Part shown: positions 6,943-24,626 of the stretch, one piece after another
Position numbering within the stretch: position 1 is the stretch's first letter
How the letters are laid out: each line of letters starts with the position of its first letter
Source of the DNA: Escherichia coli
Lineage (GTDB): Bacteria; Pseudomonadota; Gammaproteobacteria; Enterobacterales; Enterobacteriaceae
Direction: 5' to 3' (one strand)
Assembly: GCF_003790525.1 (NCBI RefSeq)
Contig: NZ_CP033635.1
Length of the DNA stretch: 64,000 nucleotides
Made by a program: the position numbers and the translations under genes
Notes under the pieces: model-generated
The model's input: only the letters and a program-made list of their open reading frames with translations
What the model was told of the DNA's origin: nothing
Databases searched by the model: none

Positions 6943-7836
6943 TCACCTGAGAGCATTCAGCAGATGAATACGAAAGTTTCGCGCAGCTGGACTTTGTTCA
7001 TGATGTTTCGGCCAGACCAACCACATTTCAGAAACCGCATCCTCTTCAGCAATCGGCACCCAGCGCATTTCGTTGAGCTGAACACGTTTAAATGACGCAG
7101 GCAAAATTGAAACGCCCAGACCAGCGGAAACCAGACCGATGATGGTCATTGCCTCACCCACCTCCTGAGTGATGACGGGCGTCAAATGGTAACGTCGCAT
7201 CAGTCCGAGAATATCGTCATACAGCCCTGTCCCGACGTGCGGATCAAAAAAGACAAAGGGTTCTTTCGCCAGTTCAGCCAGCGTTACACTCGGGTTATTT
7301 GCCAGGGGATGATCGTGCGGGATCATCGCCATAAGCGGTTCATGGACGATGACTGCGTGTTCAAGCGTCTCCGGTAACGCTGTGTTACGCAGCAATCCCA
7401 TATCCAGCGTTCCTTCAATGAGCGGAGCGATTTGCTCGCGAGTGTTCATTTCGCGGGTTTGTAAATGGACATCGGGATAATCACGGCGAAACAGCGATAA
7501 CGTATCAGACACCGCCCGAATAAAAGGAGCGGACGAAGTAAAACCAATACGCAACTCCCCCGCTTCACCCTGATGCAGTCTTTCAGCGCGAGCGGCAGCG
7601 TCATCCACCATAGACAGGATTTGCCGACTATCTGCAAGAAACTGTTTTCCTGCTGCCGTCAGAAATACACTGCGATTGGTTCGTGCCAGCAGTCGGGCAC
7701 CAATTTGTTGCTCCAGCGCCTGAATCTGCTGGCTTAGCGGCGGTTGCGAAATATTCAGGCGGGCAGCGGCGCGCCCGAAATGCAGCTCTTCTGCAACCGC
7801 AACAAAGTAACGCAGATGACGAAGTTCAATATTCAT
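6943..7836 (-). CDS. ynfL: LysR-family transcriptional regulator
   Basis: 297 aa, N-terminal LysR HTH (MNIELRHLRYFVAVAEELHFGRAA...); divergent from ynfM. Confidence 0.85.
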   Translation of the reverse strand: MNIELRHLRYFVAVAEELHFGRAAARLNISQPPLSQQIQALEQQIGARLLARTNRSVFLTAAGKQFLADSRQILSMVDDAAARAERLHQGEAGELRIGFTSSAPFIRAVSDTLSLFRRDYPDVHLQTREMNTREQIAPLIEGTLDMGLLRNTALPETLEHAVIVHEPLMAMIPHDHPLANNPSVTLAELAKEPFVFFDPHVGTGLYDDILGLMRRYHLTPVITQEVGEAMTIIGLVSAGLGVSILPASFKRVQLNEMRWVPIAEEDAVSEMWLVWPKHHEQSPAARNFRIHLLNALR

Positions 7837-7942
7837 ATTTAAAACATCTTATTTGAGATTATTAATATATTAGACAGAACAATTCGATTTTCCTAATCTA
7901 TCCATAAGCCTGATCCACAGGCATATTTAGCAAGGATTTCAA

Positions 7943-11746: not shown

Positions 11747-12157
11747 TGTCCTTCTCCTGCAAGAGAATTATTTTAATTTTCGCTTAATTCAGCGAAACCA
11801 AAGTAAAGTGGTCAAGCCCCGCGCATAGCGCAAGCTTAAGCAGGAGAAAGGACTAAAGCGCGTTGCGCCAGTGCTGCTCACCTACGAGCAAGATAGTGGA
11901 TGAGGTACGAAGATGGGTAAATGTAGAAAATAACGTCCTGAACAAATTGTCCATAATATTACAATTATCCGCAGTGTTGCTTCTCGTCATCGCGGATGAT
12001 AATTGTCCTCGGTAGTTGAACACGCCTGATTTGTATCATAGCTTAAGAATTAACTCAAAATATTTTCACTTCTTTACCTGAGCGGTTTGATTTTCGTTAT
12101 GATGACGGAGCGAAAAAGACATTATTATTAGCAAAGGAAGAAAAAACGGGGACAAGC

Positions 12158-12294
12158 ATGGCAAAGCCGATCATCACGCTCAATGGCCTAAAAATCGTCA
12201 TTATGTTGGGAATGCTGGTCATTATTCTCTGCGGTATCCGTTTTGCCGCCGAGATCATCGTGCCGTTTATTCTCGCATTATTTATTGCTGTTAT
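12158..12294 (+). pseudogene. tqsA: 5' fragment of tqsA (AI-2 exporter), first ~46 codons; reading frame then runs into element DNA and stops after 7 foreign codons
   Basis: ATG at 12158 encodes [45 protein letters not shown]; the remainder of the gene resumes in frame at 23729. Confidence 0.85.
12286..12294. repeat. attL core (direct repeat 'tgctgttat')
   Basis: Identical 9-mer at 23720-23728; chromosomal tqsA sequence on the left, element-specific sequence on the right. Confidence 0.7.
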
Positions 12295-12365
12295 ATATAA
12301 CTTATTTCGCTTAACTAATTGATTTAATTAAATAATTTGCACTACAAAAAGTGCCAAAAATCGCA

Positions 12366-12391
12366 AATTAACTACACCATTAACTACACCG
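12366..12391. repeat. 26-bp element-end repeat 'aattaactacaccattaactacaccg' (tandem 'ttaactacacc'), candidate integrase arm-type site, left end
   Basis: Exact 26-bp copy at 23567-23592 next to the int start; both copies in direct orientation just inside the element ends. Confidence 0.6.
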
Positions 12392-13466
12392 TTCGGCGCA
12401 CTGTATGAAACAACGTGGAACAAATAGACACAAGCGGCAGGCTATACCGTTATCATTTTTCAGCTATCCGTCATGAAGCTGGTGGATGATCACGGATAAC
12501 CAGGCATCTACAGCGCCTTAAAAAGCTGAACCCGACAAACATTTCTGCTTATCGGGTCCGATCGCTCTTTCTACTCGTGGCAGATGAGTTTACTAGGAAG
12601 GGGGGAACATTGTATCAGGCTATCCCCTTTCTGTGCTGATTCGGCTGGTGAATGATCTACTTGGGGCACTACACTTTTCGGATAGTGCGGGTATCCGGTT
12701 TTCTGCCTCATCGAATTTTAAGCCTTCTGACGGCCTGTATATCATTTCCTGTGGAGTTGCCGCCCTGATAGCGAATACTGCGGCAGCATGTGATTTACCC
12801 CCCGTTCTGTTGATGTTTGATGTGGCTGGTTGATGTGCTGCCATGTTTTCCGCCAATGGTGGAAAAGCCCACCAGCGCAACGCAGGACGCATAAAACCAT
12901 TGCGATGACTCTGGACGCAAAACCACGTTTAACGATGTTTTGCACTGAACCAGAATACTGTTCGTTTTTGTCTCGATGTCCGTACGTATTACGTCCGCAC
13001 CTAATCCGGCATCATGCCCACCAGCGTAACGCATTTTTTTAATTTCGTGGCTGTGCGTCCACCAGCTACGCCGGAATGGGGTATTCCGTTTCAACGGAAC
13101 AGGTATGACGAACATAATCGCACCTTCTCCCGAAAACGGTGCGACCTGCATCATCGAAATGGTGATTCAGCTACTCGGCGATTTTCACCATTCAGAATCT
13201 GGCGGGTGAGTTATCCAGCTTCCACCAATGGGGGATTCTGGAACAATCAACGGGTTACGCCTTATCAGCAAAAAAGCACATCAACTGTAAAGGAAATCGT
13301 TATGGTTGCTGGTGGGCTGCGTCACCATCATGGTGATGATGCTGTCCAGTCAGCCGGAACGGTTGAACAGGGTGGCTATGGGTCACTCTGTTGTGCGTTA
13401 TTTGCGTGATCCTGGTACGGGGTGACTATCTTTCAGATAGTCGGTTGCCTGGTTACACGAAAAAAT

Positions 13467-13775
13467 TTACTTCCTGCGTTTATCCTGCTTTGTATGCCCG
13501 TGCTGAATGCCCCGCAGTGGATCTTCTTTTTTCAGGTCGATCCCCATGTCCGTTAGTGTTTTTGTGGCGGCGGTTCTTATGGCACAAATCAGGTCTCTTT
13601 CCGGTTCCCGGGTTATGGTTGCCTTCCGGATGCATGCCGTTCGTCGTTCCGTTACATACTGACGCGCTTCATCACTTGCCGCCTGTTTCAGTAACTCACC
13701 CCAGCGATTAGCCGCCCGTCGCCATAAACCTTTCGCTTCCAGTTCTTCCGCTTTGTCATCATGCACCATAAGCAT
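13467..13775 (-). CDS. PerC-family-like putative transcriptional activator (copy 2)
   Basis: N-terminal MVHDDKAEELEAKGLWRRAANRWGEL resembles PerC/Pch activators (recalled) and is a paralog of the 17352-17624 ORF; start chosen at an internal Met. Confidence 0.45.
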   Translation of the reverse strand: MLMVHDDKAEELEAKGLWRRAANRWGELLKQAASDEARQYVTERRTACIRKATITREPERDLICAIRTAATKTLTDMGIDLKKEDPLRGIQHGHTKQDKRRK

Positions 13776-13883
13776 AATCCCATTGATACCTGTTAACTCT
13801 GAATGGTTGGTTTCTGTTCTTTTGATAATTTCCCGCATAGCTTATTGTATGACAGTACTGTCCCACAATAAGGAGTTGCACGC

Positions 13884-14174
13884 ATGAGAATGACTAGGCA
13901 CAAAAAACAGATTCTTGAACTCTACAAACCTGAGTATCGCGATTGGGTGCGGGTGGAGGCCGGAGATCCGCCTTTTGATGTTCGTGGTGTGACAGTGCTG
14001 CTCTATGGTTCCGAATATCGGCGATATCACATAGAGGCAACACGAAGGACGCTAAACGCTATGGTTCGTGATAAGTTGCTGGAGCGTGTGAAAGTCCGTG
14101 AGCCACGTTTTGATGTGCGTATTGGTGGCGATGGTGCGCATTGCACGGTAATCCGCTATGGCCTGGTAAGGTAA
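13884..14174 (+). CDS. hypothetical protein (96 aa), only plus-strand gene in the left half of the element
   Basis: ORF with ATG start; internal duplicated motif PPFDVRGV / PRFDVRIGG; followed by the palindrome 'cagaatgtaaatttacattctg'. No family recognised. Confidence 0.4.
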   Translation: MRMTRHKKQILELYKPEYRDWVRVEAGDPPFDVRGVTVLLYGSEYRRYHIEATRRTLNAMVRDKLLERVKVREPRFDVRIGGDGAHCTVIRYGLVR

Positions 14175-14276
14175 GCCATCGGGTAAATCAGATGATTAAA
14201 TCACCAGAATGTAAATTTACATTCTGCCAGCCACCAGCTACCCTCCTCAAAATTGAGGACCCTTTTTATCAACTGG

Positions 14277-14558
14277 TTACCGCCGCAACCGTTCCGGCTT
14301 CTTCCACTGATAAGTGTTTTTCGCGCTCTCCTGATACATCGCCACGCGTCGACGGTATGCCAGCAACTCTAGTACTCTGATTCGTATGTCGCGCATATCC
14401 ACGCCGTTAAGCTCAATACCATCACGGCGCATTACATCAGCAACAACACGCACATAATTTTCGGCGGTCACGCTGTCCGGCTGCGTGGCCTGTTCGTCAT
14501 GCTGCTGGCTGATTCCGGTAACGCGGCGGATTAATCCCAGTAGTTCGACTTCTGTCAT
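14277..14558 (-). CDS. hypothetical protein (~94 aa) immediately downstream of the cos/terS region
   Basis: ORF-track frame 14277..14756; start moved to the internal Met (MTEVELLGL...) so that it does not overlap the cos-like sequence. Function unknown. Confidence 0.4.
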   Translation of the reverse strand: MTEVELLGLIRRVTGISQQHDEQATQPDSVTAENYVRVVADVMRRDGIELNGVDMRDIRIRVLELLAYRRRVAMYQESAKNTYQWKKPERLRR

Positions 14559-14591
14559 TGTGCCCCCATCGCTCTGATAGTCTGGTGTCGT

Positions 14592-14655
14592 CGGGTCCTT
14601 TCCGGCATGTGGACCCGTTACGGGGCGTCGACCTCGCGCGTTTTCACTATTTATG
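14592..14655 (+). other. lambda-like cos site, copy A (cosN plus flanking sequence)
   Basis: 'cgggtcctttccgg...gttacggggcgtcgacctcgcgcgttttcactatttatgaaaattttt' closely parallels the phage lambda cos junction as I recall it ('...acgggtcctttccggtgatccgacaggttacg|gggcggcgacctcgcgggttttcgctatttatgaaaattttccgg'); the 12-mer gggcgtcgacct at 14623-14634 differs from the lambda cohesive end at one base. Confidence 0.75.
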
Positions 14656-14671
14656 AAAATTTTTCGGGATC

Positions 14672-14770
14672 CATGTCCGGTTTCTCTGCAAGTTAACCAT
14701 ATGAAAAATATAAAAACATGCTTTCCATGAACCGGACATGCGCAAAAAACAGACACTAAAACCGGACATC
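14672..14770. promoter_or_regulatory. cosB-like array: three 'ccggacat' repeats (one inverted, two direct) with an AT-rich spacer, candidate binding sites for the element's Nu1-like protein
   Basis: 'catgtccgg' at 14672-14680, 'accggacatg' at 14731-14740, 'accggacatc' at 14761-14770; located on the cosB side of cos copy A, where lambda has R3-I1-R2-R1. Confidence 0.5.
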
Positions 14771-14837
14771 GAACCAGTTAACCGAAAGTGTGCACAAATC
14801 ACATTCATTGCTGCGAGTGATTAACAAGTTATCGGCT

Positions 14838-15272
14838 TTACTGTTCTGTATCGGCTGATTGCTCCATGCTGGCACGGCGAACGCTTACGGCATGACGCCA
14901 CCCAGCCAGAAAGCCAGCCATTTTATTTCGTGCCTTGCTCACATCTTCCGGTGAATAGCCGTAAATATGCAAACCTTCATCAAATCGATGTTCTGTTTCT
15001 TCACTGGAGTACTCGTCACGCTCAGATGAAAGCAGCCTCGCAAACATAATTTTTTCCAGCGCACTGGTTTCTACGTGATATCCGATGGTCTGAAGATGGC
15101 TTTTACCTGAATACCAAAGCAATGTATGCCCGATGTGATAACCGCCAGACTTTCCGCGATCCGCATTAAGATACGGCATCCCCTGTTTGGTCCATGCGCG
15201 AATAGTGGTTCTGTTAACCTTGAAATGTTCAGCTATTTCCTGCTGACTTACAAAACAAGCTTTATCAATCAT
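14838..15272 (-). CDS. terminase small subunit Nu1-like DNA-binding protein (possible packaging-specificity/redirecting factor)
   Basis: N-terminus QQEIAEHFKVNRTTIRAWTKQGMPYL parallels lambda Nu1 KKQLADIFGASIRTIQNWQEQGMPVL (winged HTH); C-terminal half unlike Nu1; flanked by cos-like sites. Confidence 0.65.
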   Translation of the reverse strand: MIDKACFVSQQEIAEHFKVNRTTIRAWTKQGMPYLNADRGKSGGYHIGHTLLWYSGKSHLQTIGYHVETSALEKIMFARLLSSERDEYSSEETEHRFDEGLHIYGYSPEDVSKARNKMAGFLAGWRHAVSVRRASMEQSADTEQ

Positions 15273-15339
15273 AATGTTACCTTAACTGCATGGTTAAATA
15301 TCAATCAAGTGGTGGTGGTGTCACCTTCACGGAAAAACG

Positions 15340-15403
15340 TCATAAATAGCGAAAACGTGCGAGGTCGACGCCCCGTAACGGGTCCACATGCCGGAAAGGA
15401 CCC
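15340..15403 (-). other. lambda-like cos site, copy B (inverted copy of A, cosN plus flank, without the 'ccggacat' array)
   Basis: Reverse complement matches copy A at 62 of 64 positions; lies ~70 bp upstream of the Nu1-like gene start on the same strand. Confidence 0.7.
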
Positions 15404-15404
15404 G

Positions 15405-15430
15405 CAAAAAAAGCCGGATTTCTCCGGCCT
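15405..15430 (-). terminator. rho-independent terminator after the head-gene cluster (minus strand)
   Basis: Minus-strand hairpin ggccggagaaatccggcc followed by a T-run; related hairpin motif at 17324-17345. Confidence 0.5.
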
Positions 15431-15502
15431 TGTCTCAGATGGTTTTCAGTATGCGATAGATGTCGCCGTCATCGCCCTGGTTTGTGCCATCGTTCCCCCT
15501 GC

Positions 15503-15838
15503 TTATCGGGCCAGCGGCTGAACGGATACGCCGGAACCCGCAAAGGCGGCGCATTTTTTCGCATCGGTGTCGACGCTCTCAGGCCAGTTAACGGCGGCAA
15601 TATTGAATATCCCCGTCTTGTAACACTGTGCTGATTTCTGCTTTGACGTGTCCACAGGGTACGAGGTCAGATAAACAGCCTTGCCAGATTCCTTACCATC
15701 CCACGCCTTAAACTCGCCATTGTCTGCCAGCATCAGCGGGGTAAATTCCTGAATAACGCCAGCATCAGCGGCAAAATGTACCAGCGTCGTGGATACCTGT
15801 TGGCTGCCTGAAAATAACTCAATGTATGGAGCGTCCAT
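15503..15838 (-). CDS. head decoration protein, lambda gpD-like
   Basis: 111 aa; motifs TPLMLADNGEFKAWDG, YKTGIF, NWPE and KKCAAFAG parallel lambda gpD (TPLMLDTSSRKLVAWDG, YKSGTF, LWPE, KKRTAFAG) as recalled. Confidence 0.7.
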   Translation of the reverse strand: MDAPYIELFSGSQQVSTTLVHFAADAGVIQEFTPLMLADNGEFKAWDGKESGKAVYLTSYPVDTSKQKSAQCYKTGIFNIAAVNWPESVDTDAKKCAAFAGSGVSVQPLAR

Positions 15839-15849
15839 AGAATCCCCCG

Positions 15850-16905
15850 TTAAGCAATTTTGACGGTAACAAATTTGCGAATATCTGCCGGTACAGGCTG
15901 CGGTGCGCTGTGCGTCTGCACGTACTCAATCGCCGGATCGCCGTCCTCAATCCAGTTTTTCGGGTAGTACATGTTTTGCGTTGCGCCCGTTCTTACCGCT
16001 TCCTGATCCATAATCGCACCATATGCCACCAGCCCTTTATTGTTGGTGTTACCCAGGACCAGCAAATCAGGCTCAAGGAAATATTTTTCGGTCCCGTCGC
16101 TGTCAGTGTATTTGCCGGAATAGACGATAAGGGCCAGATCACCAAGATAGCCTTTAAAGCTCACCACTTCGCCCAGGTTTTTACAGGCCAGCTCGGCGGC
16201 GGATTCTGATCCACGGGAAAGATCGTACAGTTCACGGAATTTTTTAAAGCTGCGTAATGTGCGCCATACCTCACCGCCCATAATCATGACGTTGGCGGGG
16301 CAACCTGCCTGATCAGCATAAAGCTCGATGTCATAGATTGGGTCGTGCATGTCTTTATCCTGCTGGGACCATTTTTTACCACTGGCCTGCTGTATGATGC
16401 AGTTTTCCGGTATTTTCCAGTCGATTTCATAGCGTTCTATGCCTTCGCCCTCAATGATGTTTTTTCCGGTCGTTACCGCATTCACCGCCAGCCATTCCAC
16501 GCGCGCCTTAATGGCGTTTATCTGGCGGCGCATGTTGCCAGTAATCAGGCGCATACGGCGGTAAGTTGGATCGTTAAGCTGTGCCGGATCTTCTCCATCC
16601 ATGCGCATGATGGTCTTTGTTGGATCGATTTCGTGCTTTGGCTTCATGTAGCCTGGTTTAATCGTGCTGGTTTCGTACCCTTTATCGCGCTGGACCTGAC
16701 TACCCACCATAGGAGAACAGAACGCTGACATCGTAACCTCTTCAATGTCCAGGGTGTCCAGCATGATGTTTTGGGTGTTGAAGGTCGCCACGTTCGGGAA
16801 AAACAGCGTGGTAAACAGCGGACTAAATTTATATTCCGAAATATCCCCGCGATTCAGGTACGCGAAAAGCTGGTTAGTTGTAAGTGCCTTTGCTTTGCCT
16901 GTCAT
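15850..16905 (-). CDS. major capsid protein, lambda gpE family
   Basis: 351 aa; YKFSPLFTTLFFP and PGYMKPKHEIDP parallel lambda gpE FKFDPLFLRLFF and PGYVKPKHEVNP; similar length to gpE. Confidence 0.75.
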   Translation of the reverse strand: MTGKAKALTTNQLFAYLNRGDISEYKFSPLFTTLFFPNVATFNTQNIMLDTLDIEEVTMSAFCSPMVGSQVQRDKGYETSTIKPGYMKPKHEIDPTKTIMRMDGEDPAQLNDPTYRRMRLITGNMRRQINAIKARVEWLAVNAVTTGKNIIEGEGIERYEIDWKIPENCIIQQASGKKWSQQDKDMHDPIYDIELYADQAGCPANVMIMGGEVWRTLRSFKKFRELYDLSRGSESAAELACKNLGEVVSFKGYLGDLALIVYSGKYTDSDGTEKYFLEPDLLVLGNTNNKGLVAYGAIMDQEAVRTGATQNMYYPKNWIEDGDPAIEYVQTHSAPQPVPADIRKFVTVKIA

Positions 16906-17111
16906 TATTCACCTCCGTGAACCTGATTGATACCCAGCGCCGCACGCAAATAGGTGCGCACCTGCCAGCCTGTTGACGGCTCAACCATCGCCAGCGGATC
17001 AAGTCCTGCCGCAATGCCTGCTTTTACATTCTGCTGGTGGCGTTCCTTGAGCGCCTCCACGATGTCGGGGCTTATGTAGACCGTCACCCCGCCTTTTTTC
17101 TCTTCTGCCAT
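16905..17111 (-). CDS. hypothetical protein (68 aa), first gene of the head cluster
   Basis: ORF with ATG start, stop overlaps the capsid gene start; no family recognised. Confidence 0.4.
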   Translation of the reverse strand: MAEEKKGGVTVYISPDIVEALKERHQQNVKAGIAAGLDPLAMVEPSTGWQVRTYLRAALGINQVHGGE

Positions 17112-17323
17112 AGTCAGAAATTCCTCTTTGACTTAAAAAATCATAACTGGATGTTCATCCAGTCCTGATTATAATCATGATTGCATTTTGCGCAACAATA
17201 TTGAGTTACGTTGCAAATTATGAAATGATTATCCCGATCATGTGTGTCAGTTCACCATAAAAAACCTCGTATACAAAAGCCCCATAAGCCCCCTGTGACC
17301 TTATCGGGCTTTTTTTAGGCGTA

Positions 17324-17345
17324 AAAAAGCCGGATTGCTCCGGCT
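17324..17345 (-). terminator. rho-independent terminator downstream of the PerC-like gene (minus strand)
   Basis: Minus-strand hairpin gccggagcaatccggc followed by TTTTTT. Confidence 0.5.
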
Positions 17346-17351
17346 GTGTGC

Positions 17352-17624
17352 TCACTTCTGCGGGTAGTTGCGCCATATTGCTTTGCCAATACCAGCTATC
17401 CCCATTTGTTTTTCAGTGCGATTAACTGACCTTTTCAGAGCGCCTAAATCATCCGGCGGCTCCGGTGGCCTCTGTGCCTTACGGATACATTCCGCGCGAC
17501 GCATTGCCACCTGTTCGCGCTCCTTGTCTGTCTCCACCAGCCTCATAACTTCACCCCATCGCGCCGCCGCCCTCCGGTAAAAGCCTTTTGCCTCGAGTTC
17601 CTCCGCTATGCGGTCATGTACCAT
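17352..17624 (-). CDS. PerC-family-like putative transcriptional activator (copy 1)
   Basis: MVHDRIAEELEAKGFYRRAAARWGEV...; paralog of the 13467-13775 ORF; start placed at the internal Met just after the ssb stop. Confidence 0.45.
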   Translation of the reverse strand: MVHDRIAEELEAKGFYRRAAARWGEVMRLVETDKEREQVAMRRAECIRKAQRPPEPPDDLGALKRSVNRTEKQMGIAGIGKAIWRNYPQK

Positions 17625-17634
17625 CGTCACCCCC

Positions 17635-18045
17635 TCAGAACGGAATATCATCACCGTAAGGGTCATCGCCTCCCGCTGGTGGCTGATTACCCTGTGTGCC
17701 TGTGGTTTTGCGTCTGTTCCCGCCAGGACGTGCCGCACGGGCACTGATTACGCTGTCTGCAATAACCTGCCAGCCCTGCCGCGTTTCCCCGTTCTGTCCG
17801 GTCCACTGGCTGACCTGCATCGTGCCGGATACGCTGGCAACGTCGCCTTTTTGATGTTTAGCCAGAAAGTCGGCCTGTTTGCCAAATGCGATGACCGATA
17901 ACCATAACGTCGCCTGTCCGTCCTGTGCCTGGCCGCATGGTAAAGATACCGCCATACGCGCCAGCGTCATCGGTGTACCCTTACTGGTCTGTTTTACCTG
18001 CGGGTCGTCCACCAGCCGCCCGTAAGCTGCTATCTGTGCTGTCAT
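17635..18045 (-). CDS. ssb: single-stranded DNA-binding protein (SSB)
   Basis: 136 aa with OB-fold-like core, Gly/Pro/Gln-rich linker and the acidic C-terminal tail ...DDIPF typical of SSB. Confidence 0.7.
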   Translation of the reverse strand: MTAQIAAYGRLVDDPQVKQTSKGTPMTLARMAVSLPCGQAQDGQATLWLSVIAFGKQADFLAKHQKGDVASVSGTMQVSQWTGQNGETRQGWQVIADSVISARAARPGGNRRKTTGTQGNQPPAGGDDPYGDDIPF

Positions 18046-18284
18046 GCTGTCTGCTCTCCGGTTTTAACGTTGATGGTTGTTACCTGTTCTGCTTCGGCAA
18101 TATCCCGCTCTGTCAGCGTGGCAAAGTTTGCCGCCGTCGTTGTCATGAATGCGCTTATCAGTTCGGGATGTGCTTTCGCGTATCCTTCCCCTGTGTTGCG
18201 GTCGATGATTTTTATCGCCACCCTCAGCCAGTGCTCTGTAAGGTCAATGGCGCGGTGATCTGTCTTTTTGTGGCTTACCTTCAT
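18042..18284 (-). CDS. hypothetical protein (80 aa)
   Basis: ORF in the replication module, overlaps ssb start by 4 nt (coupled); no family recognised. Confidence 0.45.
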   Translation of the reverse strand: MKVSHKKTDHRAIDLTEHWLRVAIKIIDRNTGEGYAKAHPELISAFMTTTAANFATLTERDIAEAEQVTTINVKTGEQTA

Positions 18285-18287
18285 GAT

Positions 18288-18656
18288 TTACTCCAGAGTA
18301 CCGCTATTGCTGCTGTCGTTAACCGGATACCAGGCAAATACCATCGATTCACCACAGTGAACAAACTTCTTATCCGGCAGATAAAGGCACTCGCACATTC
18401 CCTCATCAGGACTATGCGGACTCATGCCCAGCTCACTGGTCAGCACGGGTAAGATTTCGCGGCAGGTGTTCCCCGCACCGAAATAATCAACCTCACAAAG
18501 CGCCCATGCAGCAATCGGGCTGTACCATTCCGTGCCGTCGTCGTCTTTGAACTTAGCCCACCAGCCAGGAAGGGCAGTTGATATGCTCAGTGTTTCAATT
18601 TCAGTGTTCATAAATTTACCTTCGGTATTTTGTCCTGCTGTTCGATTTTTATTCAT
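18288..18656 (-). CDS. hypothetical protein (122 aa or shorter)
   Basis: ORF directly downstream of the iteron region; Cys-containing; no family recognised. Confidence 0.45.
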   Translation of the reverse strand: MNKNRTAGQNTEGKFMNTEIETLSISTALPGWWAKFKDDDGTEWYSPIAAWALCEVDYFGAGNTCREILPVLTSELGMSPHSPDEGMCECLYLPDKKFVHCGESMVFAWYPVNDSSNSGTLE

Positions 18657-18860
18657 TGCTCACCATCTCTCACTTTTACTACTCACTTTTTAAAGCGTCT
18701 CGCTTCGTCTCACTTGAGATTTTTGTGTTTTGTATGTGCATGTTTCATAAGTGTTTTTTCACTGCTCACTTTTGAGCATGTATACAGGTGAGAAAGTGAG
18801 TAATTGTGTTAATATTTTGTAAAAACCTCACCATTACTCACTTTTACTACTCACTTTTTA
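18657..18860. repeat. iteron array, candidate replication origin ('ctcactttt' repeated ~7 times, one inverted, around an AT-rich core)
   Basis: Copies at 18669, 18682, 18709 (variant), 18765, 18793 (inverted), 18837 and 18850; 'ctcacttttactactcacttttta' occurs twice; lies immediately 3' of the rep ATPase gene. Confidence 0.6.
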
Positions 18861-20264
18861 CAGTGGTCCTACATCATCACCATCAATGTAAATCACGGCG
18901 TCTTTTTCCAGTTTGGCTAACCATCGCCGCATATTTTTCACGTCATACCCAAGCCGTTTCATGTCATCACGTAACAGCGGGATCGTGCACTTGTCGCCGT
19001 TCTGTGTGCGTGAACGGATGCACCCCCATAGCGCGGTATGGTTTTCCGTCTTGTTGCCTGCCTCCTCGATGCGCTCCAGTTCAGCAGGGGCGCGGGGAAC
19101 GTCAATCACCACCATGGACACAATTTCTTCGCCATCTGTATCGGTGAACACCTCCACGCTTTTAAGGTCGTATGCACTCTCTTTTGGCTCCTCTGCGTCC
19201 TTCATCTTCGTACACGCCGCAACCAGTGCTGTAACGTCTGAATTTTCCCTGCTGATTCGGTACTCTGCATCAAGCGCGGCACGGAATGCACTGGAACCAC
19301 GCGCCCCCTTTGTTTCATCCTTGCCGGAATGGTGAACCACCAGCACCGTGGCCCCTGTGGCCTGCTTTATCGCGTCACACCCCTGGATAAATGCGCCCAT
19401 ATCACGGGAATCATTTTCATCATTCCCACCAAAGCAACGGGCCAGCGTGTCGATCACAATCAGCCGCACATTTTCGCCCGTTCTGCTCTTAACAAGTCCG
19501 GCAGTCCTGATAACCTGCTCCACATAGTCAGGCGATGCAGGGAAAACAGGCGCGTTAATGATGCACAAATCTGTAACCACCTTGTCGTGGGTTATCTCCC
19601 ACGCCTTAACGCGGCGTTTTACGCCCATGCTGCCTTCACCAGCGATATAGATAACCGCACCCTTACTTACCCTGCGGCCTCCCCATGCCATACCTGTGGC
19701 AACATGGCACGACCAGGAAATGGCGAGGAACGATTTATAAGAACCGCTGGCCCCGTAGGTGCTGCATAATGACTCAGCCGGAATAAGCCCCTTAATGACG
19801 TAGCTTTGCTGCGCATCGAATCCCTCAGAACCCCATGAGATGGGAAGTGTGATTTTTCGCTTTCCGCCATTCATGACCAGGCTTTCCCCTCTCTCCCATG
19901 TTTCCCGTAGTCGTGGTAGCTGGTCGCTCCAGTCCTCCAGCAGTTCGAAATTTTCAGAAAGTAGCCGCGCCTCCTGGACTCCGGCGATCGCCAGTTTTGT
20001 GGCAATGGTCAGCATCTGCATATCGTCCAGGTTTCCGGCGCGTATGACCTTTACCCTGTATCGTCCTTCATCAACAATCTGTAAGTTGTCCAGTTCGCTT
20101 AACTGATAACGGCCCAGATAAACCGGAGGGATGGGATCGCCTGCTTTTTTGGCCTGTGCAATCATGTAATGTTCTGCAAAGGAGTGAGCATTATCACCCG
20201 CAAAAATAACCGCCTCAGTGTGTTTATCTTTCGGTAACAGTTTTACGTTCGGTGCAAGTTTCAT
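18858..20264 (-). CDS. replication protein with RecA-like P-loop ATPase domain (RepA/DnaB-like, satellite pri-rep type)
   Basis: 468 aa; Walker A YGASGSYKS, Walker B-like RLIVIDTL, HHSGK motif; C-terminal region possibly DNA-binding; iterons directly downstream. Confidence 0.65.
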   Translation of the reverse strand: MKLAPNVKLLPKDKHTEAVIFAGDNAHSFAEHYMIAQAKKAGDPIPPVYLGRYQLSELDNLQIVDEGRYRVKVIRAGNLDDMQMLTIATKLAIAGVQEARLLSENFELLEDWSDQLPRLRETWERGESLVMNGGKRKITLPISWGSEGFDAQQSYVIKGLIPAESLCSTYGASGSYKSFLAISWSCHVATGMAWGGRRVSKGAVIYIAGEGSMGVKRRVKAWEITHDKVVTDLCIINAPVFPASPDYVEQVIRTAGLVKSRTGENVRLIVIDTLARCFGGNDENDSRDMGAFIQGCDAIKQATGATVLVVHHSGKDETKGARGSSAFRAALDAEYRISRENSDVTALVAACTKMKDAEEPKESAYDLKSVEVFTDTDGEEIVSMVVIDVPRAPAELERIEEAGNKTENHTALWGCIRSRTQNGDKCTIPLLRDDMKRLGYDVKNMRRWLAKLEKDAVIYIDGDDVGPL

Positions 20265-20548
20265 TTCTTACCCCCTGCGACCAGCATTTCACGGATTTTG
20301 CGGATATAACTTGCAGCACGTTTCTGATTAACGGCTTTACGATGGCCCACCAGCGTGAAATCACGCCGGAACTGATAAACAGGCATAACGCAGTCATATT
20401 CGTAGCCTTCACGGCGGTAAGTGATGCGACGTTCCTCCACGCCCTTAATCATTACCGTGCCGCCGTAGTTATCACGGAAAATATCGCCGGGACGGATTTC
20501 AGGACGAGCGGGGCCGCTGGCATTAACGCCAGAATTTTTATTTTTCAT
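20261..20548 (-). CDS. hypothetical protein (95 aa), translationally coupled upstream of rep
   Basis: ORF overlapping the rep start by 4 nt; basic; no family recognised. Confidence 0.45.
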   Translation of the reverse strand: MKNKNSGVNASGPARPEIRPGDIFRDNYGGTVMIKGVEERRITYRREGYEYDCVMPVYQFRRDFTLVGHRKAVNQKRAASYIRKIREMLVAGGKK

Positions 20549-20553
20549 GTTTT

Positions 20554-20781
20554 TTATTCTCCGGTGTGCTGTTCTTTATATCTGTCGTGAATTGCCATCA
20601 CTGTATTTAATTCATTAATAACAGCCGTTAATAGCGTACGCACGGCAGAAAACATCATTGAATCAGATTCATCGCCACTTTCCTGCACATCAATTAAATT
20701 AAGTAGTAATGCGTCCATTTCCTTTGCGCGGATTAATGCCTTTTCACAATGAAAAATAACACCAAAGGGTATTTTATTCAT
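20554..20781 (-). CDS. hypothetical protein (~75 aa; ORF-track frame extends to 20823)
   Basis: First gene of the minus-strand replication operon; start uncertain (MNKIPFGV... versus the upstream Met). Confidence 0.4.
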   Translation of the reverse strand: MNKIPFGVIFHCEKALIRAKEMDALLLNLIDVQESGDESDSMMFSAVRTLLTAVINELNTVMAIHDRYKEQHTGE

Positions 20782-21060
20782 GACTCCCCTCCTGACGGAT
20801 ACGGGCGGCGAATACAGCGACACAACCGGACGGGCAACGGTTACGCGCTTCGCGTTCCGTCCAGGCGGTCACGTGGATAATTTGAGATTCTCCGGCACTC
20901 AGTGCCAGAAAACGCCACACAAAGGCGGTTTGTGTGTGCGCTAGTCGTGGGGTATGCTGTGTTCCAGCCATAATCGTTACTCCTGTTAACGGTTTGGTTA
21001 GACGCCCTGCATGTGTTACAGCACTGCGGGGCGTTGTCTTTTTAACGGCTTTCGTGATAG

Positions 21061-21104
21061 GGTGTACACCTATCAAGCAAAAACATAACGCTATAGGTGT
21101 ACAC
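21061..21104. promoter_or_regulatory. perfect 12-bp inverted repeat (gtgtacacctat ... ataggtgtacac), candidate operator abutting a small regulator gene
   Basis: Read directly from sequence; the 3' half ends 1 nt before the ATG at 21105. Confidence 0.5.
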
Positions 21105-21299
21105 ATGTCAACAGTTATTAAGCGAGATAAAAAACCAAAGGGAACAGGAAAAGCCCCCCCATTCCATATGCGAATAGCTCCAGAACTGAAAGAGCAGTTT
21201 GATAATGAGGCCAGCAATGATGGGGTAAGCCTAGCCAACTGGCTTAAAGAGTTGGGGCGCGCCGAACTAAAGCGACGCGGCATTGAACCTAAAGGCTGA
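21105..21299 (+). CDS. small basic protein (64 aa), possible ribbon-helix-helix/YlcI-YnfO-like prophage regulator
   Basis: MSTVIKRDKKPKGTGKAPPFHMRIAPELKEQFDNEASNDGVSLANWLKELGRAELKRRGIEPKG; family assignment from memory only; divergent from the replication operon. Confidence 0.4.
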   Translation: MSTVIKRDKKPKGTGKAPPFHMRIAPELKEQFDNEASNDGVSLANWLKELGRAELKRRGIEPKG

Positions 21300-21302
21300 T
21301 GT

Positions 21303-21426
21303 ATGACTGAAAAGCAGACCGATAACAAACTTTCTCTACCAGAGAATAAACCAGCAGGCTTCTTACCAAGAAAAATCCTTGATGAGATCAAACGCCGCCA
21401 GCGCCGCAAGGCCAAAGAGCAGGAAT
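21303..21426 (+). CDS. possible small protein (41 aa, Lys/Arg-rich C-terminus)
   Basis: ATG 4 nt after the preceding stop; MTEKQTDNKLSLPENKPAGFLPRKILDEIKRRQRRKAKEQE; followed by a strong hairpin terminator. Too short for the ORF track. Confidence 0.25.
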
Positions 21427-21460
21427 AGCCCACCAGCAAGCCAGCACACTGATCACATTG

Positions 21461-21490
21461 GCCACCGTGACAGGTGGCCTTTTCTTTGCC
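21461..21490 (+). terminator. rho-independent terminator (ggccaccgtgacaggtggcc + T-rich tract)
   Basis: Perfect 7-bp stem with 6-nt loop followed by ttttctttg, just after the 41-codon ORF. Confidence 0.55.
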
Positions 21491-21752
21491 CGTTATCCGG
21501 CAATTGTGGCGCTTCGCCACACGGTTGATATAATTCCCCTGCTCAGATTCATTTTTTGCGCGGCAGGTAAATTGTTCAGAAAGGCGGCTCCTTATCGGGG
21601 CCGCTTTTTTTATGTCTGAAAAACCGCGATTTTGTTGTTTTTCAGTTTCACCAGGCCGAACGAAGCCCCGCCCATGTTCGGGCGTATATCCAGTCTTCAT
21701 GGTTAAATCTCTGTATTAGTGGATGGGTGGCGGCTGTGTGCCGCCAGTCTTT

Positions 21753-21941
21753 TTAGTGAACTGCCTCGCAGCTTTCCTTCCATGCCAGAACTTCGGATAA
21801 AGACCAGCCAACGGAACGACCGCCCAGCTTACGCCGTGATGGGAATTGTCCGGCCTTTTCCAGGCGGTAGCGGCATGAGCGGCTAAGGCCTGTTAGCTTT
21901 TCGCATTCTTTTTCACGTATAAAGCGATCAGTGCTTAACAC
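21753..21941 (-). CDS. alpA: AlpA-family (Phage_AlpA) transcriptional regulator
   Basis: 62 aa; ...EKLTGLSRSCRYRLEKAGQFPSRRKLGGRSVGWSLSEVLAW... matches the AlpA HTH signature; adjacent to int. Confidence 0.75.
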   Translation of the reverse strand: MLSTDRFIREKECEKLTGLSRSCRYRLEKAGQFPSRRKLGGRSVGWSLSEVLAWKESCEAVH

Positions 21942-22315
21942 TATTGCCCCCTTTCGTTTCTTAAAGAGTTATTTCGTGTTCTATTGCGTTGGGATGTGTC
22001 TGATTGTGTCAGGGTGATTCAGAGTTGGCAAATGTTGGTGGCGGGTATTTTACAGAAACGGGGTGATTTTAATAAAAATCATTTTAATTCAGTATTATGC
22101 AAAGGCATAAAATCTCGTTTTATGCCTTTTTTCTCACTATTTAAAGCGTTATTCGCTAATGTATAAAAAACCAGTTGAGCATTAAAAATCAGCAACTTAT
22201 AAATCTGTATACTTTTTGACCTCTTGTTCGTGGTTGTTTCACGTTGTTGTGTATTGTTGCACGTTGTATCTGTGCACTTATCCAGTATGCGCATACTGAA
22301 AAAACACGAAAAAAA

Positions 22316-23563
22316 TTATTTTCTTCTGGCTACTGGTAGCGTGGTTACGTTTTCATGTGCTCCCGCCAGTATCTCCAACCGCTCCACCCACATATCCAGC
22401 GCATTGCGTTTCGCATCCAGATAACGGGAATGATTATAAACTCGCTGCATTCCTGGCATCTGGTGGCCTGTAAGCTGCTCCACGACGTGAGGATCCACGC
22501 CTAAATCGTTCAGCATCGTTGTAAAGGTGCGCCGGATGTCATGCAGTGACCATTGAGGGTGTTTTAGCCTCCTGTGCGCTAATCTGCCGTACTGCGATAC
22601 GCTGGCCTCCTGTTTCACTTCCCCCAGTAATAAGCCCGTGTGCCTGTTCTGCTCCACCAGCCGCGTGACGAACGGCAGGATCGCTTCCGGTATGGGCCGG
22701 AATATTGCGACCTTCGTTTTGCTGTGCTCCTTCGGAACGGTCCAGAGCATTTCCGTGAAATCCCACTCCCCGATCTCCGATAACCTCAGTTCTACCGTCC
22801 TGGCTCCGAAGACAATCAGGAGGCGGATTAGTGCGACGTAGTAAGGGGAAAATATTTTTTTGTCCAGTGCCTGCAATAATTCGCCCAGTTCTTTGGTGCT
22901 TAAGACACGTTCGCTTATATCCGGTTTTTTCCCAACGTCCGCCACGTTCAGATCGTCCAGAACGTTGCTGATTGCATAGCGCCGCCTCCGGCAAAACTTA
23001 AGCGCCTGTTTGCACGCCTGTAGCACGAATCCGGCAGTAACAGGCGTTCGCTTTGCCACCCGATCAAAACAGGCCAGCCAGTGCCGTAGCTCGCATTTAT
23101 CCAGCGGCATAGCACCAATGTGCTGTATTACGTGATTATTAAGTCGCCTTTTCAGGGCGATATAATCCACGCGGTTTTCCTTTACGTAAGACTCAAGCCA
23201 GTAGGTGAGCGCATCTCCAACCGTTACAGGCTTTAACGCTTCCTGCATGGTGTAATTCATCTCATGACGTGGATTTTTCCCCTCAGCCAGCCATGCGCGA
23301 CACTGGGCGGCTTTTTCCCTGGCTGATTTCAGGCTCAGATCAGGATAATTTCCCAGCTTAATACGTTCCGGTCGTGTCTCTCTTCCCGTTCCGGCCCTGT
23401 AAGTGAAATACCAGGTTAAAAGGCCGCTGGTTGAATGCCTGACGCTCAGATTTCCACCGTCATTAAGAAAGGCTGTTTTTTGGGCGGGTGTGCCGTTGAT
23501 TTTCCTTAGCTGTGTATCGCTCAGCTTGTTAAGTGCTCTGGTCATAATTTTGAATCCGGTCAT
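22316..23563 (-). CDS. int: tyrosine site-specific integrase (P4-type)
   Basis: ~415 aa; N-terminal arm-binding-like region, C-terminal catalytic motifs (HDIRRTF, GHQ..VYNHSRY); located at the element's right end next to the arm-type repeat. Exact start uncertain (GTG/ATG/ATG cluster). Confidence 0.85.
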   Translation of the reverse strand: MTGFKIMTRALNKLSDTQLRKINGTPAQKTAFLNDGGNLSVRHSTSGLLTWYFTYRAGTGRETRPERIKLGNYPDLSLKSAREKAAQCRAWLAEGKNPRHEMNYTMQEALKPVTVGDALTYWLESYVKENRVDYIALKRRLNNHVIQHIGAMPLDKCELRHWLACFDRVAKRTPVTAGFVLQACKQALKFCRRRRYAISNVLDDLNVADVGKKPDISERVLSTKELGELLQALDKKIFSPYYVALIRLLIVFGARTVELRLSEIGEWDFTEMLWTVPKEHSKTKVAIFRPIPEAILPFVTRLVEQNRHTGLLLGEVKQEASVSQYGRLAHRRLKHPQWSLHDIRRTFTTMLNDLGVDPHVVEQLTGHQMPGMQRVYNHSRYLDAKRNALDMWVERLEILAGAHENVTTLPVARRK

Positions 23564-23566
23564 CAC

Positions 23567-23592
23567 AATTAACTACACCATTAACTACACCG
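23567..23592. repeat. 26-bp element-end repeat (same as 12366-12391), right end, immediately upstream of int
   Basis: Exact 26/26 identity with the left copy. Confidence 0.6.
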
Positions 23593-23719
23593 ATCGTTGC
23601 ACAAAGGGCTACAACGTGAAACAAGCTGGAACAAGAAAAATCACAAATTTGTTTATAATCAAAAACATAATGCACAACCTGAAACATTATGAAACGGCAA
23701 AAAACACTAATTGATAAAG

Positions 23720-23728
23720 TGCTGTTAT
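23720..23728. repeat. attR core (direct repeat 'tgctgttat')
   Basis: Identical to 12286-12294; element sequence on the left, tqsA sequence on the right. Confidence 0.7.
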
Positions 23729-24626
23729 TCTTAACCCGCTGGTGCAACACATGGTCCGCTGGCGAGTGCCGCGTGTACTGGCGGTGTCGATTTTGATGAC
23801 CATCATCGTGATGGCGATGGTGTTGCTGTTAGCTTATCTGGGTTCCGCGCTCAACGAGTTGACGCGGACGTTACCGCAATATCGCAACTCTATTATGACG
23901 CCGCTGCAAGCGATTGAACCGTTGTTGCAACGCGTAGGGATTGATGTCTCAGTTGACCAACTGGCGCATTACATTGATCCGAACGCGGCAATGACGTTGC
24001 TCACCAACTTATTGACGCAGTTATCTAATGCCATGTCATCAATCTTTTTATTGCTGCTGACGGTGCTGTTTATGTTGCTCGAAGTGCCACAATTGCCCGG
24101 AAAATTTCAGCAAATGATGGTGCGTCCGGTTGAAGGGATGGCGGCGATTCAGCGTGCGATTGACAGTGTGTCTCATTATCTGGTGCTGAAAACAGCCATC
24201 AGCATCATCACCGGCCTGGTCGCCTGGGCGATGCTCGCCGCACTCGATGTTCGCTTCGCTTTTGTCTGGGGATTGCTGGCCTTTGCGCTTAATTACATCC
24301 CTAATATTGGTTCAGTTCTCGCGGCAATCCCCCCTATCGCTCAGGTACTGGTGTTTAATGGCTTCTACGAAGCGTTGCTGGTGCTGGCGGGATATCTGCT
24401 AATTAATCTGGTCTTCGGCAATATTCTGGAGCCGCGCATCATGGGACGTGGGCTGGGGCTTTCCACATTGGTGGTATTTTTGTCGTTGATTTTTTGGGGA
24501 TGGTTGTTAGGACCGGTGGGTATGCTGCTTTCCGTGCCGTTAACAATTATTGTCAAAATTGCGCTTGAACAAACAACGGGAGGTCAAAGCATCGCCGTTC
24601 TGTTAAGCGATCTCAACAAAGAGTGA
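23729..24626 (+). pseudogene. tqsA: 3' portion of tqsA (AI-2 exporter, AI-2E/PerM family), separated from its 5' end by the element
   Basis: In-frame continuation ([12 protein letters not shown]...) of the fragment ending at 12294; upstream frame closed by tga/taa in element DNA; only an internal GTG/ATG could restart translation. Confidence 0.8.

Follow-up and report, generated by a model that had tools for sequence, protein, structure and literature searches.

The 64,000-nt stretch of Escherichia coli DNA analysed here (contig NZ_CP033635.1 of assembly GCF_003790525.1, referred to below as the window) contains, inside tqsA, an island of about 11.2 kb whose gene content identifies it as a phage-inducible chromosomal island (PICI), a satellite of the EcCICFT073 / O-island 51 (OI-51) type, and this island encodes two small proteins of the PerC/Pch family. 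The two are non-orthologous, one for each of two variable slots of the satellite, and the island is a mosaic in which both PerC slots are filled. The initial annotation had pointed to open reading frames (ORFs) at 13467-13775 and 17352-17624, and had seen in them a duplicated PerC/Pch-type activator as found in prophages. Both ORFs are present, both on the minus strand, the plus-strand translations being interrupted by stops:

13467-13769, minus strand: perC-1, the PerC of the terminal cassette, 100 aa, with the start (MVHD...) given by the Prokaryotic Genome Annotation Pipeline (PGAP) in a near-identical genome; Pfam PerC E 5.7e-23
17352-17624, minus strand: perC-2, a PchE-type PerC of 90 aa, whose translation starts MVHDRIAEELEAKGFYRRAAARWGEV; Pfam PerC E 1.6e-39

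An alternative ATG for perC-1 lies 6 nt earlier, at 13775, and would give a 102-aa product starting MLMVHDDKAEELEAKGLWRRAANRWGEL. The N-terminal motif quoted in the initial annotation is correct and common to both proteins, and its assignment to the PerC/Pch family is borne out by the Pfam hidden Markov model (PF06069, a profile of 90 positions), which perC-1 matches over positions 1-82 and perC-2 over positions 1-89 with the E-values listed. Both proteins are also in PHROG 994, and both are labelled "PerC family transcriptional regulator" by PGAP in strain CM2. They have the size (about 90-100 aa), the N-terminal core (A-E-x-L-E-x-x-G-x-x-R-R-A-x-x-R-W) and the all-helical fold of the family; L10, E11, G14, R17, R18 and A19 are invariant in an alignment of 44 PerC sequences. 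An AlphaFold2 (AF2) model of PerC consists of five helices, with a mean predicted local distance difference test (pLDDT) value of 84.8, and this predicted structure matches tetratricopeptide repeat (TPR)-like folds, with no helix-turn-helix (HTH) or other DNA-binding motif. A sequence search of the PDB yielded no solved PerC homologue, and Foldseek gave no match below E = 1 against the same database. PerC is the sole significant Pfam match, and with the TPR-like fold this leaves no sign of an Ogr/Delta zinc finger or of the lambda Q family. The NCBIfam model for AraC negative regulators (ANR_neg_reg, NF033650) is matched over nearly all of its 54 positions, at 19.0 and 16.6 bits (E 9e-4 and 5e-3), against a curated cut-off of 32. 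Related PerC loci in other species, one genome per species, belong without exception to the Enterobacterales (44/44), and a second PerC within 10 kb was seen at two of these 44.

Between themselves the two proteins share 39 of 77 residues by BLASTP (51%, E 2e-23) and 42% over the aligned family core. They fall into separate clades of the PerC tree, perC-1 forming its own, at most 45% identical to the other PerCs sampled. As the initial annotation stated, perC-2 lies directly upstream of the genes for a 68-aa protein, the major capsid protein and the decoration protein, and perC-1 at the far low-coordinate end of the element, of which it is the last gene; both genes are thus carried horizontally, within an integrated island.

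perC-2 is the last gene of the replication operon and starts 10 nt past ssb. It shows 76% identity (66/87) with the OI-51 PerC of E. coli O157, encoded in an island at phoQ and described in O157:H7 as PchE, a group 3 PerC homologue (PMC3378721), and by sequence it is the orthologue of this protein. In O157:H7 (OI-51, also CP-933C or Sp7) the PchE gene likewise follows ssb and is accompanied by the same capsid, decoration and terS/Rpp genes. The two loci differ in that perC-2 abuts the terminators, whereas O157 and strain 042 have two extra small ORFs in between, and in that the O157 island lies between phoQ and roxA/ycfD, whereas that of the window lies in tqsA and has a second PerC. Genes of the perC-2 type follow ssb in E. 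coli 042, TUM1886, AR_0085 and O157, and these close relatives have no second PerC. At a coverage of at least 80%, perC-2 and its downstream region are found in 403 of 5426 complete E. coli genomes, while about one-sixth of 891 matching genomes match the promoter part only (a rough estimate from an even sampling of the listed rows). The dN/dS ratio (nonsynonymous to synonymous substitution rates) of perC-2 against its relatives is 0.2-0.5. The features downstream of it are:

17275-17345, minus strand: tandem intrinsic terminators, T1 at 17328-17345 and T2 at 17275-17316, ending the replication/perC-2 operon
17168-17195, minus strand: candidate capsid-operon promoter, TTGCGC-N16-TATAAT, with a perfect -10 and a poor -35
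17134-17170, minus strand: hairpin of the leader with a U-run behind it, lying between the -10 and the ribosome-binding site; -13.4 kcal/mol, z -3.9; conserved
16905-17111, minus strand: 68-aa first gene of the capsid operon, phrog_3255, kept in all capsid-type relatives
15850-16905, minus strand: major capsid homologue, lambda gpE-like (phrog_29, E 1.7e-108; PGAP); compare c1499 of EcCICFT073
15503-15838, minus strand: head decoration homologue, lambda gpD-like (phrog_49, E 2e-26; PGAP)
15407-15433, minus strand: terminator hairpin after the decoration gene; -18.6 kcal/mol, z -3.1
14838-15272, minus strand: 144-aa HTH protein, Rpp-like or small-terminase-like (terminase small subunit phrog_57, E 1e-8)

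T1 and T2 fold at -12.6 kcal/mol (z -4.7) and -20.8 kcal/mol (z -5.1), respectively, and both are conserved in relatives. The surroundings of the candidate promoter are AT-rich (GC 0.375 at 17100-17299), and relatives conserve about 90% of the region and have in it an inverted repeat, ATTGCA-N5-TGCAAT, that overlaps the -35 and the spacer. As a shared operator this repeat shows no enrichment in the window, with 8 matches at up to 2 mismatches against 6.1 expected, and a generic sigma-70 scan gave fewer matches than shuffled sequence and was uninformative. The leader hairpin, which might serve in attenuation, as a target for antitermination or as a stabilising structure at the 5' end, is followed by a strong ribosome-binding site and then the 68-aa gene. 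The "head operon" of the initial annotation holds as far as the capsid and decoration homologues go; a full head module is lacking. The terminator after the decoration gene is a 27-nt repeat of the one just past perC-2 (T1; 17323-17349; repeat family D6). The 144-aa protein, for which Rpp of EcCICFT073 is the comparison (PMC6739421), also shows a weak BldC/MerR HTH match. A 137-aa head-tail connector gene, found in relatives between the decoration and rpp/terS genes, is absent from the window except for a fragment at about 15437-15577, and the gap at 15273-15502 contains the copy of the 27-nt terminator repeat; this loss may mean that the island is impaired in packaging, or that capsid and rpp are now separate transcription units.

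The slot between ssb and the capsid promoter varies among related loci (designated L001 and so on): it is empty in L051, L058 and L059, and elsewhere holds a PerC alone, a PerC with two small ORFs (042, O157), or a ProQ/FinO-family gene with a PerC. The same capsid operon is found in L058 and L059, behind a promoter region that is about 90% identical; a search of all their frames at E up to 1 gave no ORF of the PerC family. L051 (GB089) lacks a PerC in this slot and has the terminal copy only. Where the post-ssb PerC is missing, T1 comes directly after ssb, and is followed by an AT-rich insert of about 170 nt with runs of TCATCATCATCA and TTTTAATTGTTTT, and then by T2 and the capsid promoter (7501-7915 in both L058 and L059, 14445-14859 in L051). 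In several other satellites the gene for a ProQ/FinO-family RNA chaperone lies between ssb and PerC and overlaps the PerC start, which suggests a co-expressed pair of RNA-binding protein and PerC:

L052, 15519-16043: ProQ/FinO gene
L053, 14630-15160: ProQ/FinO gene
L055, 14731-15276: ProQ/FinO gene
L056, 14018-14554: ProQ/FinO gene

A tape-measure homologue of 1000-1100 aa (phrog_1107, E = 0) is encoded downstream of the PerC in L022 (11534-14689), L020 (11557-14697) and L025 (11676-15086); such a gene in the ssb-PerC satellites of Pantoea, Erwinia and Chimaeribacter is unusual for a satellite of this size.

The other gene, perC-1, belongs to a small module at the distal end of the island, with the following partners:

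13884-14174, plus strand: h96, a predicted winged-helix DNA-binding protein of 96 aa, the divergent partner of perC-1
14277-14558, minus strand: 93-aa protein, phrog_1561 (PHROG E 7.5e-54), first gene of the terminal module
13844-13869, strand not applicable: imperfect palindrome of 26 bp, ATTGTGGGACAGTACTGTCATACAAT, whose 12-bp core GACAGTACTGTC is perfect, a candidate shared operator

The palindrome lies within the 114-bp divergent region between perC-1 and h96, in which -10-like boxes face both ways; it occurs once in the window and is invariant in 7 loci. From this arrangement we infer that perC-1 is gated by the winged-helix protein, the two genes making up a divergent switch under autoregulation. 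The 761-bp unit formed by perC-1 and h96 is present in 46 of the 5426 genomes, always at the distal end of a satellite and beside phrog_1561, though the backbones and insertion sites differ; the phrog_1561 gene itself adjoins either h96 or the element end in all relatives. The larger accessory segment, 12400-14276, is found at a coverage of at least 80% in three genomes only (CM2, PKF11 and PKF4). At six other loci, with several satellite backbones and four insertion sites, the perC-1 protein is 99-100% identical. The backbones that carry the cassette are:

L005 and L057: ClpP-capsid-fusion satellite, at clpS and yejO
L051: capsid/decoration satellite, at yejO
L052 and L056: DUF927 / ProQ / DUF1441 / TerS satellites
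L053: primase / ProQ / DUF2213 satellite
L055: RepA / ProQ / TerS satellite
L054: true capsid-forming PICI (cf-PICI) with portal, protease, HNH and TerL

Six of the nine terminal-cassette loci inspected have a further PerC, behind ssb or ProQ, namely L052-L056 and CM2 (L001), which is counted here even though it is near-identical to the window, and the remaining three (L005, L051 and L057) have the terminal PerC only. In this small sample, cassettes at least 95% identical to that of the window are all in two-PerC elements, and those below 95% all in single-PerC elements.

The prophage setting first suggested for these genes is right as to the family and wrong as to the element, which is a PICI. 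Integrase, AlpA and the replication module are on one strand, direct repeats flank the island, the distance between them (about 11.2 kb) is within the 10-15 kb class, and there are no lysis or tail genes. The layout agrees with the descriptions of EcCICFT073 and of O157 O-island 51 (PMC3378721, PMC6092414). With EcCICFT073-type PICIs the island shares int, alpA, a replication module, ssb, one-way transcription (PMC6092414), a size of about 11 kb, c1499-like capsid and c1500-like decoration homologues and an Rpp-like gene, and it differs from them in its site in tqsA, the truncated connector gene and the extra terminal winged-helix/PerC cassette. Helper-driven induction, replication and transfer, shown for EcCICFT073 with lambda and phi80 (PMC6092414), may extend to this element. 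Assignment to the cf-PICIs was rejected, there being no portal, protease or TerL, only the capsid and decoration homologues and the Rpp-like HTH protein. The remaining features are:

12366-12391, strand not applicable: left copy of the direct repeat AATTAACTACACCATTAACTACACCG (family D1), close to where the island meets the 5' part of tqsA
23567-23592, strand not applicable: right copy of AATTAACTACACCATTAACTACACCG (family D1), adjoining int
22316-23566, minus strand: tyrosine integrase (PGAP)
21753-21941, minus strand: AlpA-type HTH regulator, 62 aa (PGAP)
20261-20548, minus strand: DUF4222 gene
18858-20264, minus strand: RepA-family helicase, the replication initiator (PGAP)
17635-18045, minus strand: single-stranded DNA-binding protein, ssb (TIGR00621, above its cut-off)

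The repeat bounding the island at both ends is 26 nt long and exact. Between them, the copies split tqsA, the autoinducer-2 (AI-2) transporter gene between mdtJI and pntAB, into a short 5' part (12158-12301) and a 3' part of 294 codons (23742-24626). The same gene is the site of related islands in E. coli 042, TUM1886 and CM2, with the split annotated in CM2 and 042; other related islands are at phoQ/roxA, allC/allE, yejO/tRNA-Pro, clpS and yifB. According to the ORF list and the annotation of a near-identical genome, the core genes are on the minus strand throughout, in the order int, AlpA-type HTH, Icd-like and small ORFs, DUF4222, RepA-family helicase, two small ORFs, ssb and perC-2, followed by the 68-aa gene, capsid, decoration, Rpp-like HTH, phrog_1561, the 96-aa gene (plus strand) and perC-1. 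AlpA is the activator of Gram-negative PICIs (PMC6092414). Just downstream of the helicase gene, in an AT-rich stretch (36% GC), are two 37-nt direct repeats, 92% identical, at 18659-18695 and 18827-18863 (family D2), which have the position and form expected of a PICI replication origin and probably represent it.

What is known of related proteins comes largely from virulence regulation. PerC of enteropathogenic E. coli (EPEC; pEAF plasmid) and PchA/B/C of enterohaemorrhagic E. coli (EHEC; prophage-like elements) have the same Pfam family and N-terminal core as the window pair and are, like them, small, horizontally acquired regulators in Enterobacterales. PerC activates LEE1/ler, within the LEE (locus of enterocyte effacement), by relieving H-NS silencing, and PchA activates LEE1 solely through relief of H-NS/StpA/Hha silencing (PMC4764244). 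This anti-silencing is not seen in the nearest characterised relative of perC-2: PchE leaves LEE largely unaffected, its expression from a plasmid causes strong repression of csgD and curli, and its own basal expression drops on SOS induction (PMC6265319). EcCIMP1_025, a PerC-like protein of the PICI EcCIMP1, silences LEE1, and its authors noted a likeness to ANR proteins and proposed an ANR-like action (PMC11773190). Like the window pair, it is a PICI-borne PerC-family accessory regulator with weak ANR resemblance; by description, EcCIMP1 has one PerC-family gene and no capsid genes, whereas the window island has two and a capsid gene.

Starting from the observed family membership, gene positions, operon punctuation, cassette mobility and PerC-less relatives, we infer that the two PerCs serve as cargo regulators, with silenced promoters of the host or of mobile elements as their targets in trans, a reading to which we would give a probability of about 55%. 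perC-2, at the 3' end of what is probably an AlpA-driven replication operon, would be made whenever that operon is transcribed, whether basally or on induction. perC-1 forms part of a self-contained three-gene terminal cassette (phrog_1561, the winged-helix gene and perC), its putative promoter overlapping the 26-bp palindrome, to which the divergent winged-helix protein is the most likely candidate to bind; its expression would in this way be set apart from the rest of the island. If they act as their characterised relatives do, both proteins may remodel H-NS-type silencing complexes or bind other regulators, probably at promoters that were acquired horizontally or serve surface structures (LEE1 and csgD are examples), and neither would be a dedicated, site-specific activator of the island's head genes. 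Their low identity and differing C-terminal tails suggest different targets for perC-1 and perC-2, and, since PchE and EcCIMP1_025 repress, "activator" is an unsafe label for either copy. The variability of the post-ssb slot and the near-invariance of the terminal PerC across backbones support this reading, as does the recurrence of the two-PerC layout in L052-L056, a cf-PICI among them. The cross-talk with host promoters that the initial annotation had offered as one option is its best-backed part, through PchE (csgD/curli; PMC6265319) and EcCIMP1_025 (LEE1; PMC11773190). Several points weigh on the other side. The anti-silencing data are for group 1 Pch proteins, and neither PchE-type nor terminal-type PerCs are among these. 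Several genera share the adjacency of ssb and PerC ahead of late or morphogenesis genes, which would suit a core regulatory position better than random cargo. The cassettes have 99% nucleotide identity, with 3 nt differences, too recent a divergence for selection on perC-1 to be measured by dN/dS, and recent spread may also be the cause of the invariance of the palindrome.

Cargo regulation does not preclude a role within the island, and except for duplication or decay, considered last, the readings weighed here are not mutually exclusive. perC-2 could be the late-gene activator of the island, acting from the end of the early operon onto the capsid/packaging promoter, perhaps by counter-silencing H-NS on this AT-rich promoter, with perC-1 as a back-up or as an activator of the second tier. 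A similar place is taken by lambda Q and P4 Delta. That perC-2 is the last early gene, followed by two terminators, a promoter of perfect -10 and poor -35 (37.5% GC) and a leader hairpin, speaks for such a role, and PerC also follows ssb at the boundary of the morphogenesis genes in the cf-PICI L054 and comes past the replication genes and before a tape-measure-containing module in satellites of Pantoea, Erwinia, Lonsdalea, Chimaeribacter and Leclercia. L058 and L059, however, keep the capsid operon and its promoter with no PerC-family ORF, which counts against perC-2 as an obligatory late activator; the empty slot of L051 also weakens the separate control of the head operon that had been proposed for perC-2, and which it may yet exert, although L051, having a terminal copy, is compatible with substitution of one PerC for the other. 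The two extra ORFs between PerC and terminators in 042 and O157, the inverted repeat at the promoter without enrichment elsewhere in the window and the decrease of PchE expression on SOS induction likewise speak against it, and a literature search found no tie of PerC to PICI packaging or late-gene control. On balance, late activation seems unlikely, while still the strongest of the rivals. An extension of it, more speculative still, is that satellite late-gene control was the ancestral PerC job, the post-ssb PerC counter-silencing an AT-rich morphogenesis promoter and the terminal PerC, gated by the winged helix, being a second input with a trigger of its own; were this so, islands without a PerC would draw on one supplied in trans by others in the same cell, and the LEE and curli effects would be by-products.

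It is also conceivable, if rather doubtful, that both proteins are ANR-like anti-activators, which would inhibit AraC/XylS-family activators or H-NS by contact and repress virulence or surface genes. The weak ANR_neg_reg matches over nearly the full model, the TPR-like helical fold without a DNA-binding motif, the repression by EcCIMP1_025 and PchE and the same proposal in PMC11773190 are in keeping with this, but the scores (19 and 16.6 bits) are far under the cut-off and the Pfam PerC matches much stronger. ANR proteins (Aar-type) are likewise small and helical, and the profile likeness extends over the first 50 residues or so, whereas PerC proteins are longer, with an extra C-terminal helical part. 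A helper phage or rival elements might instead be the targets, with helper promoters tuned for the supply of virion parts or for interference; perC-2 is co-expressed with the replication genes, and PerC-like genes occur in temperate phages (SfV, SfII, Stx2c phages and CPS-53 YfdN-like phages). Cross-regulators of this kind, such as P4 Delta and SaPI (Staphylococcus aureus pathogenicity island) Pti, are common in satellites. The sequence holds no evidence for a helper target, however, and PADLOC assigned neither PerC (nor h96 or phrog_1561) to a known defence or interference family, which makes this quite improbable. Least credible of all is a recent duplication within the element, or the decay of one copy to a remnant without function. 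It could appeal to the common N-terminal motif and the shared element, but the identity (51% locally, 42% over the core) is low, the clades are different, and most relatives carry just one of the two; neither ORF is disrupted, perC-1 does not vary across many genomes, and perC-2 has a dN/dS of 0.2-0.5. As the two genes are of different clades and the cassette is mobile, local duplication was rejected, and with it the "duplicated activator": perC-1 arrived with a near-invariant mobile cassette.

PerC homologues in Gram-negative PICIs have been reported before (PMC6092414, PMC11773190); neither the PerC family, nor this type of element, nor their combination is new, and the finding in this window is largely an ordinary case of both. 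The literature search gave no description of a two-PerC PICI among the few works that deal with PerC and PICIs together. Modestly new are the two position-specific PerC slots, each with its own clade, the terminal winged-helix/PerC cassette, mobile and near-invariant, together with its palindrome, and the natural PerC-less controls that keep the same capsid promoter. PerC/Pch proteins connect mobile elements with the control of virulence and of biofilms in pathogenic E. coli; the natural variants (two slots, mobile cassette, PerC-less islands) offer a clean set for asking whether PerC serves the satellite or the host.

Some smaller features of the island may be added. The 308-aa ORF at 20774-21700 (minus strand) is a probable overcall, only its last 65 or so residues matching an Icd-like or repressor family; opposite it, at 20934-21299 (plus strand), PGAP annotates a HicB-family antitoxin-like gene in CM2. 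Rfam searches of 11800-24000 at E up to 0.1 came back without any RNA family. The segment of about 1 kb at 12392-13466, which separates perC-1 from the left repeat and is also without an Rfam match, contains no convincing gene (PGAP has two hypotheticals here in CM2) and varies among islands that share the terminal cassette; it includes a strong terminator-like hairpin at 12528-12559 on the minus strand. A 21-nt similarity (86%) between 13455-13475 and 22304-22324, across the stop codons and 3' flanks of perC-1 and int, may be a chance resemblance or the scar of a recombination event. Once the island is excised and circular, perC-1 would point at int across the attachment (att) site.

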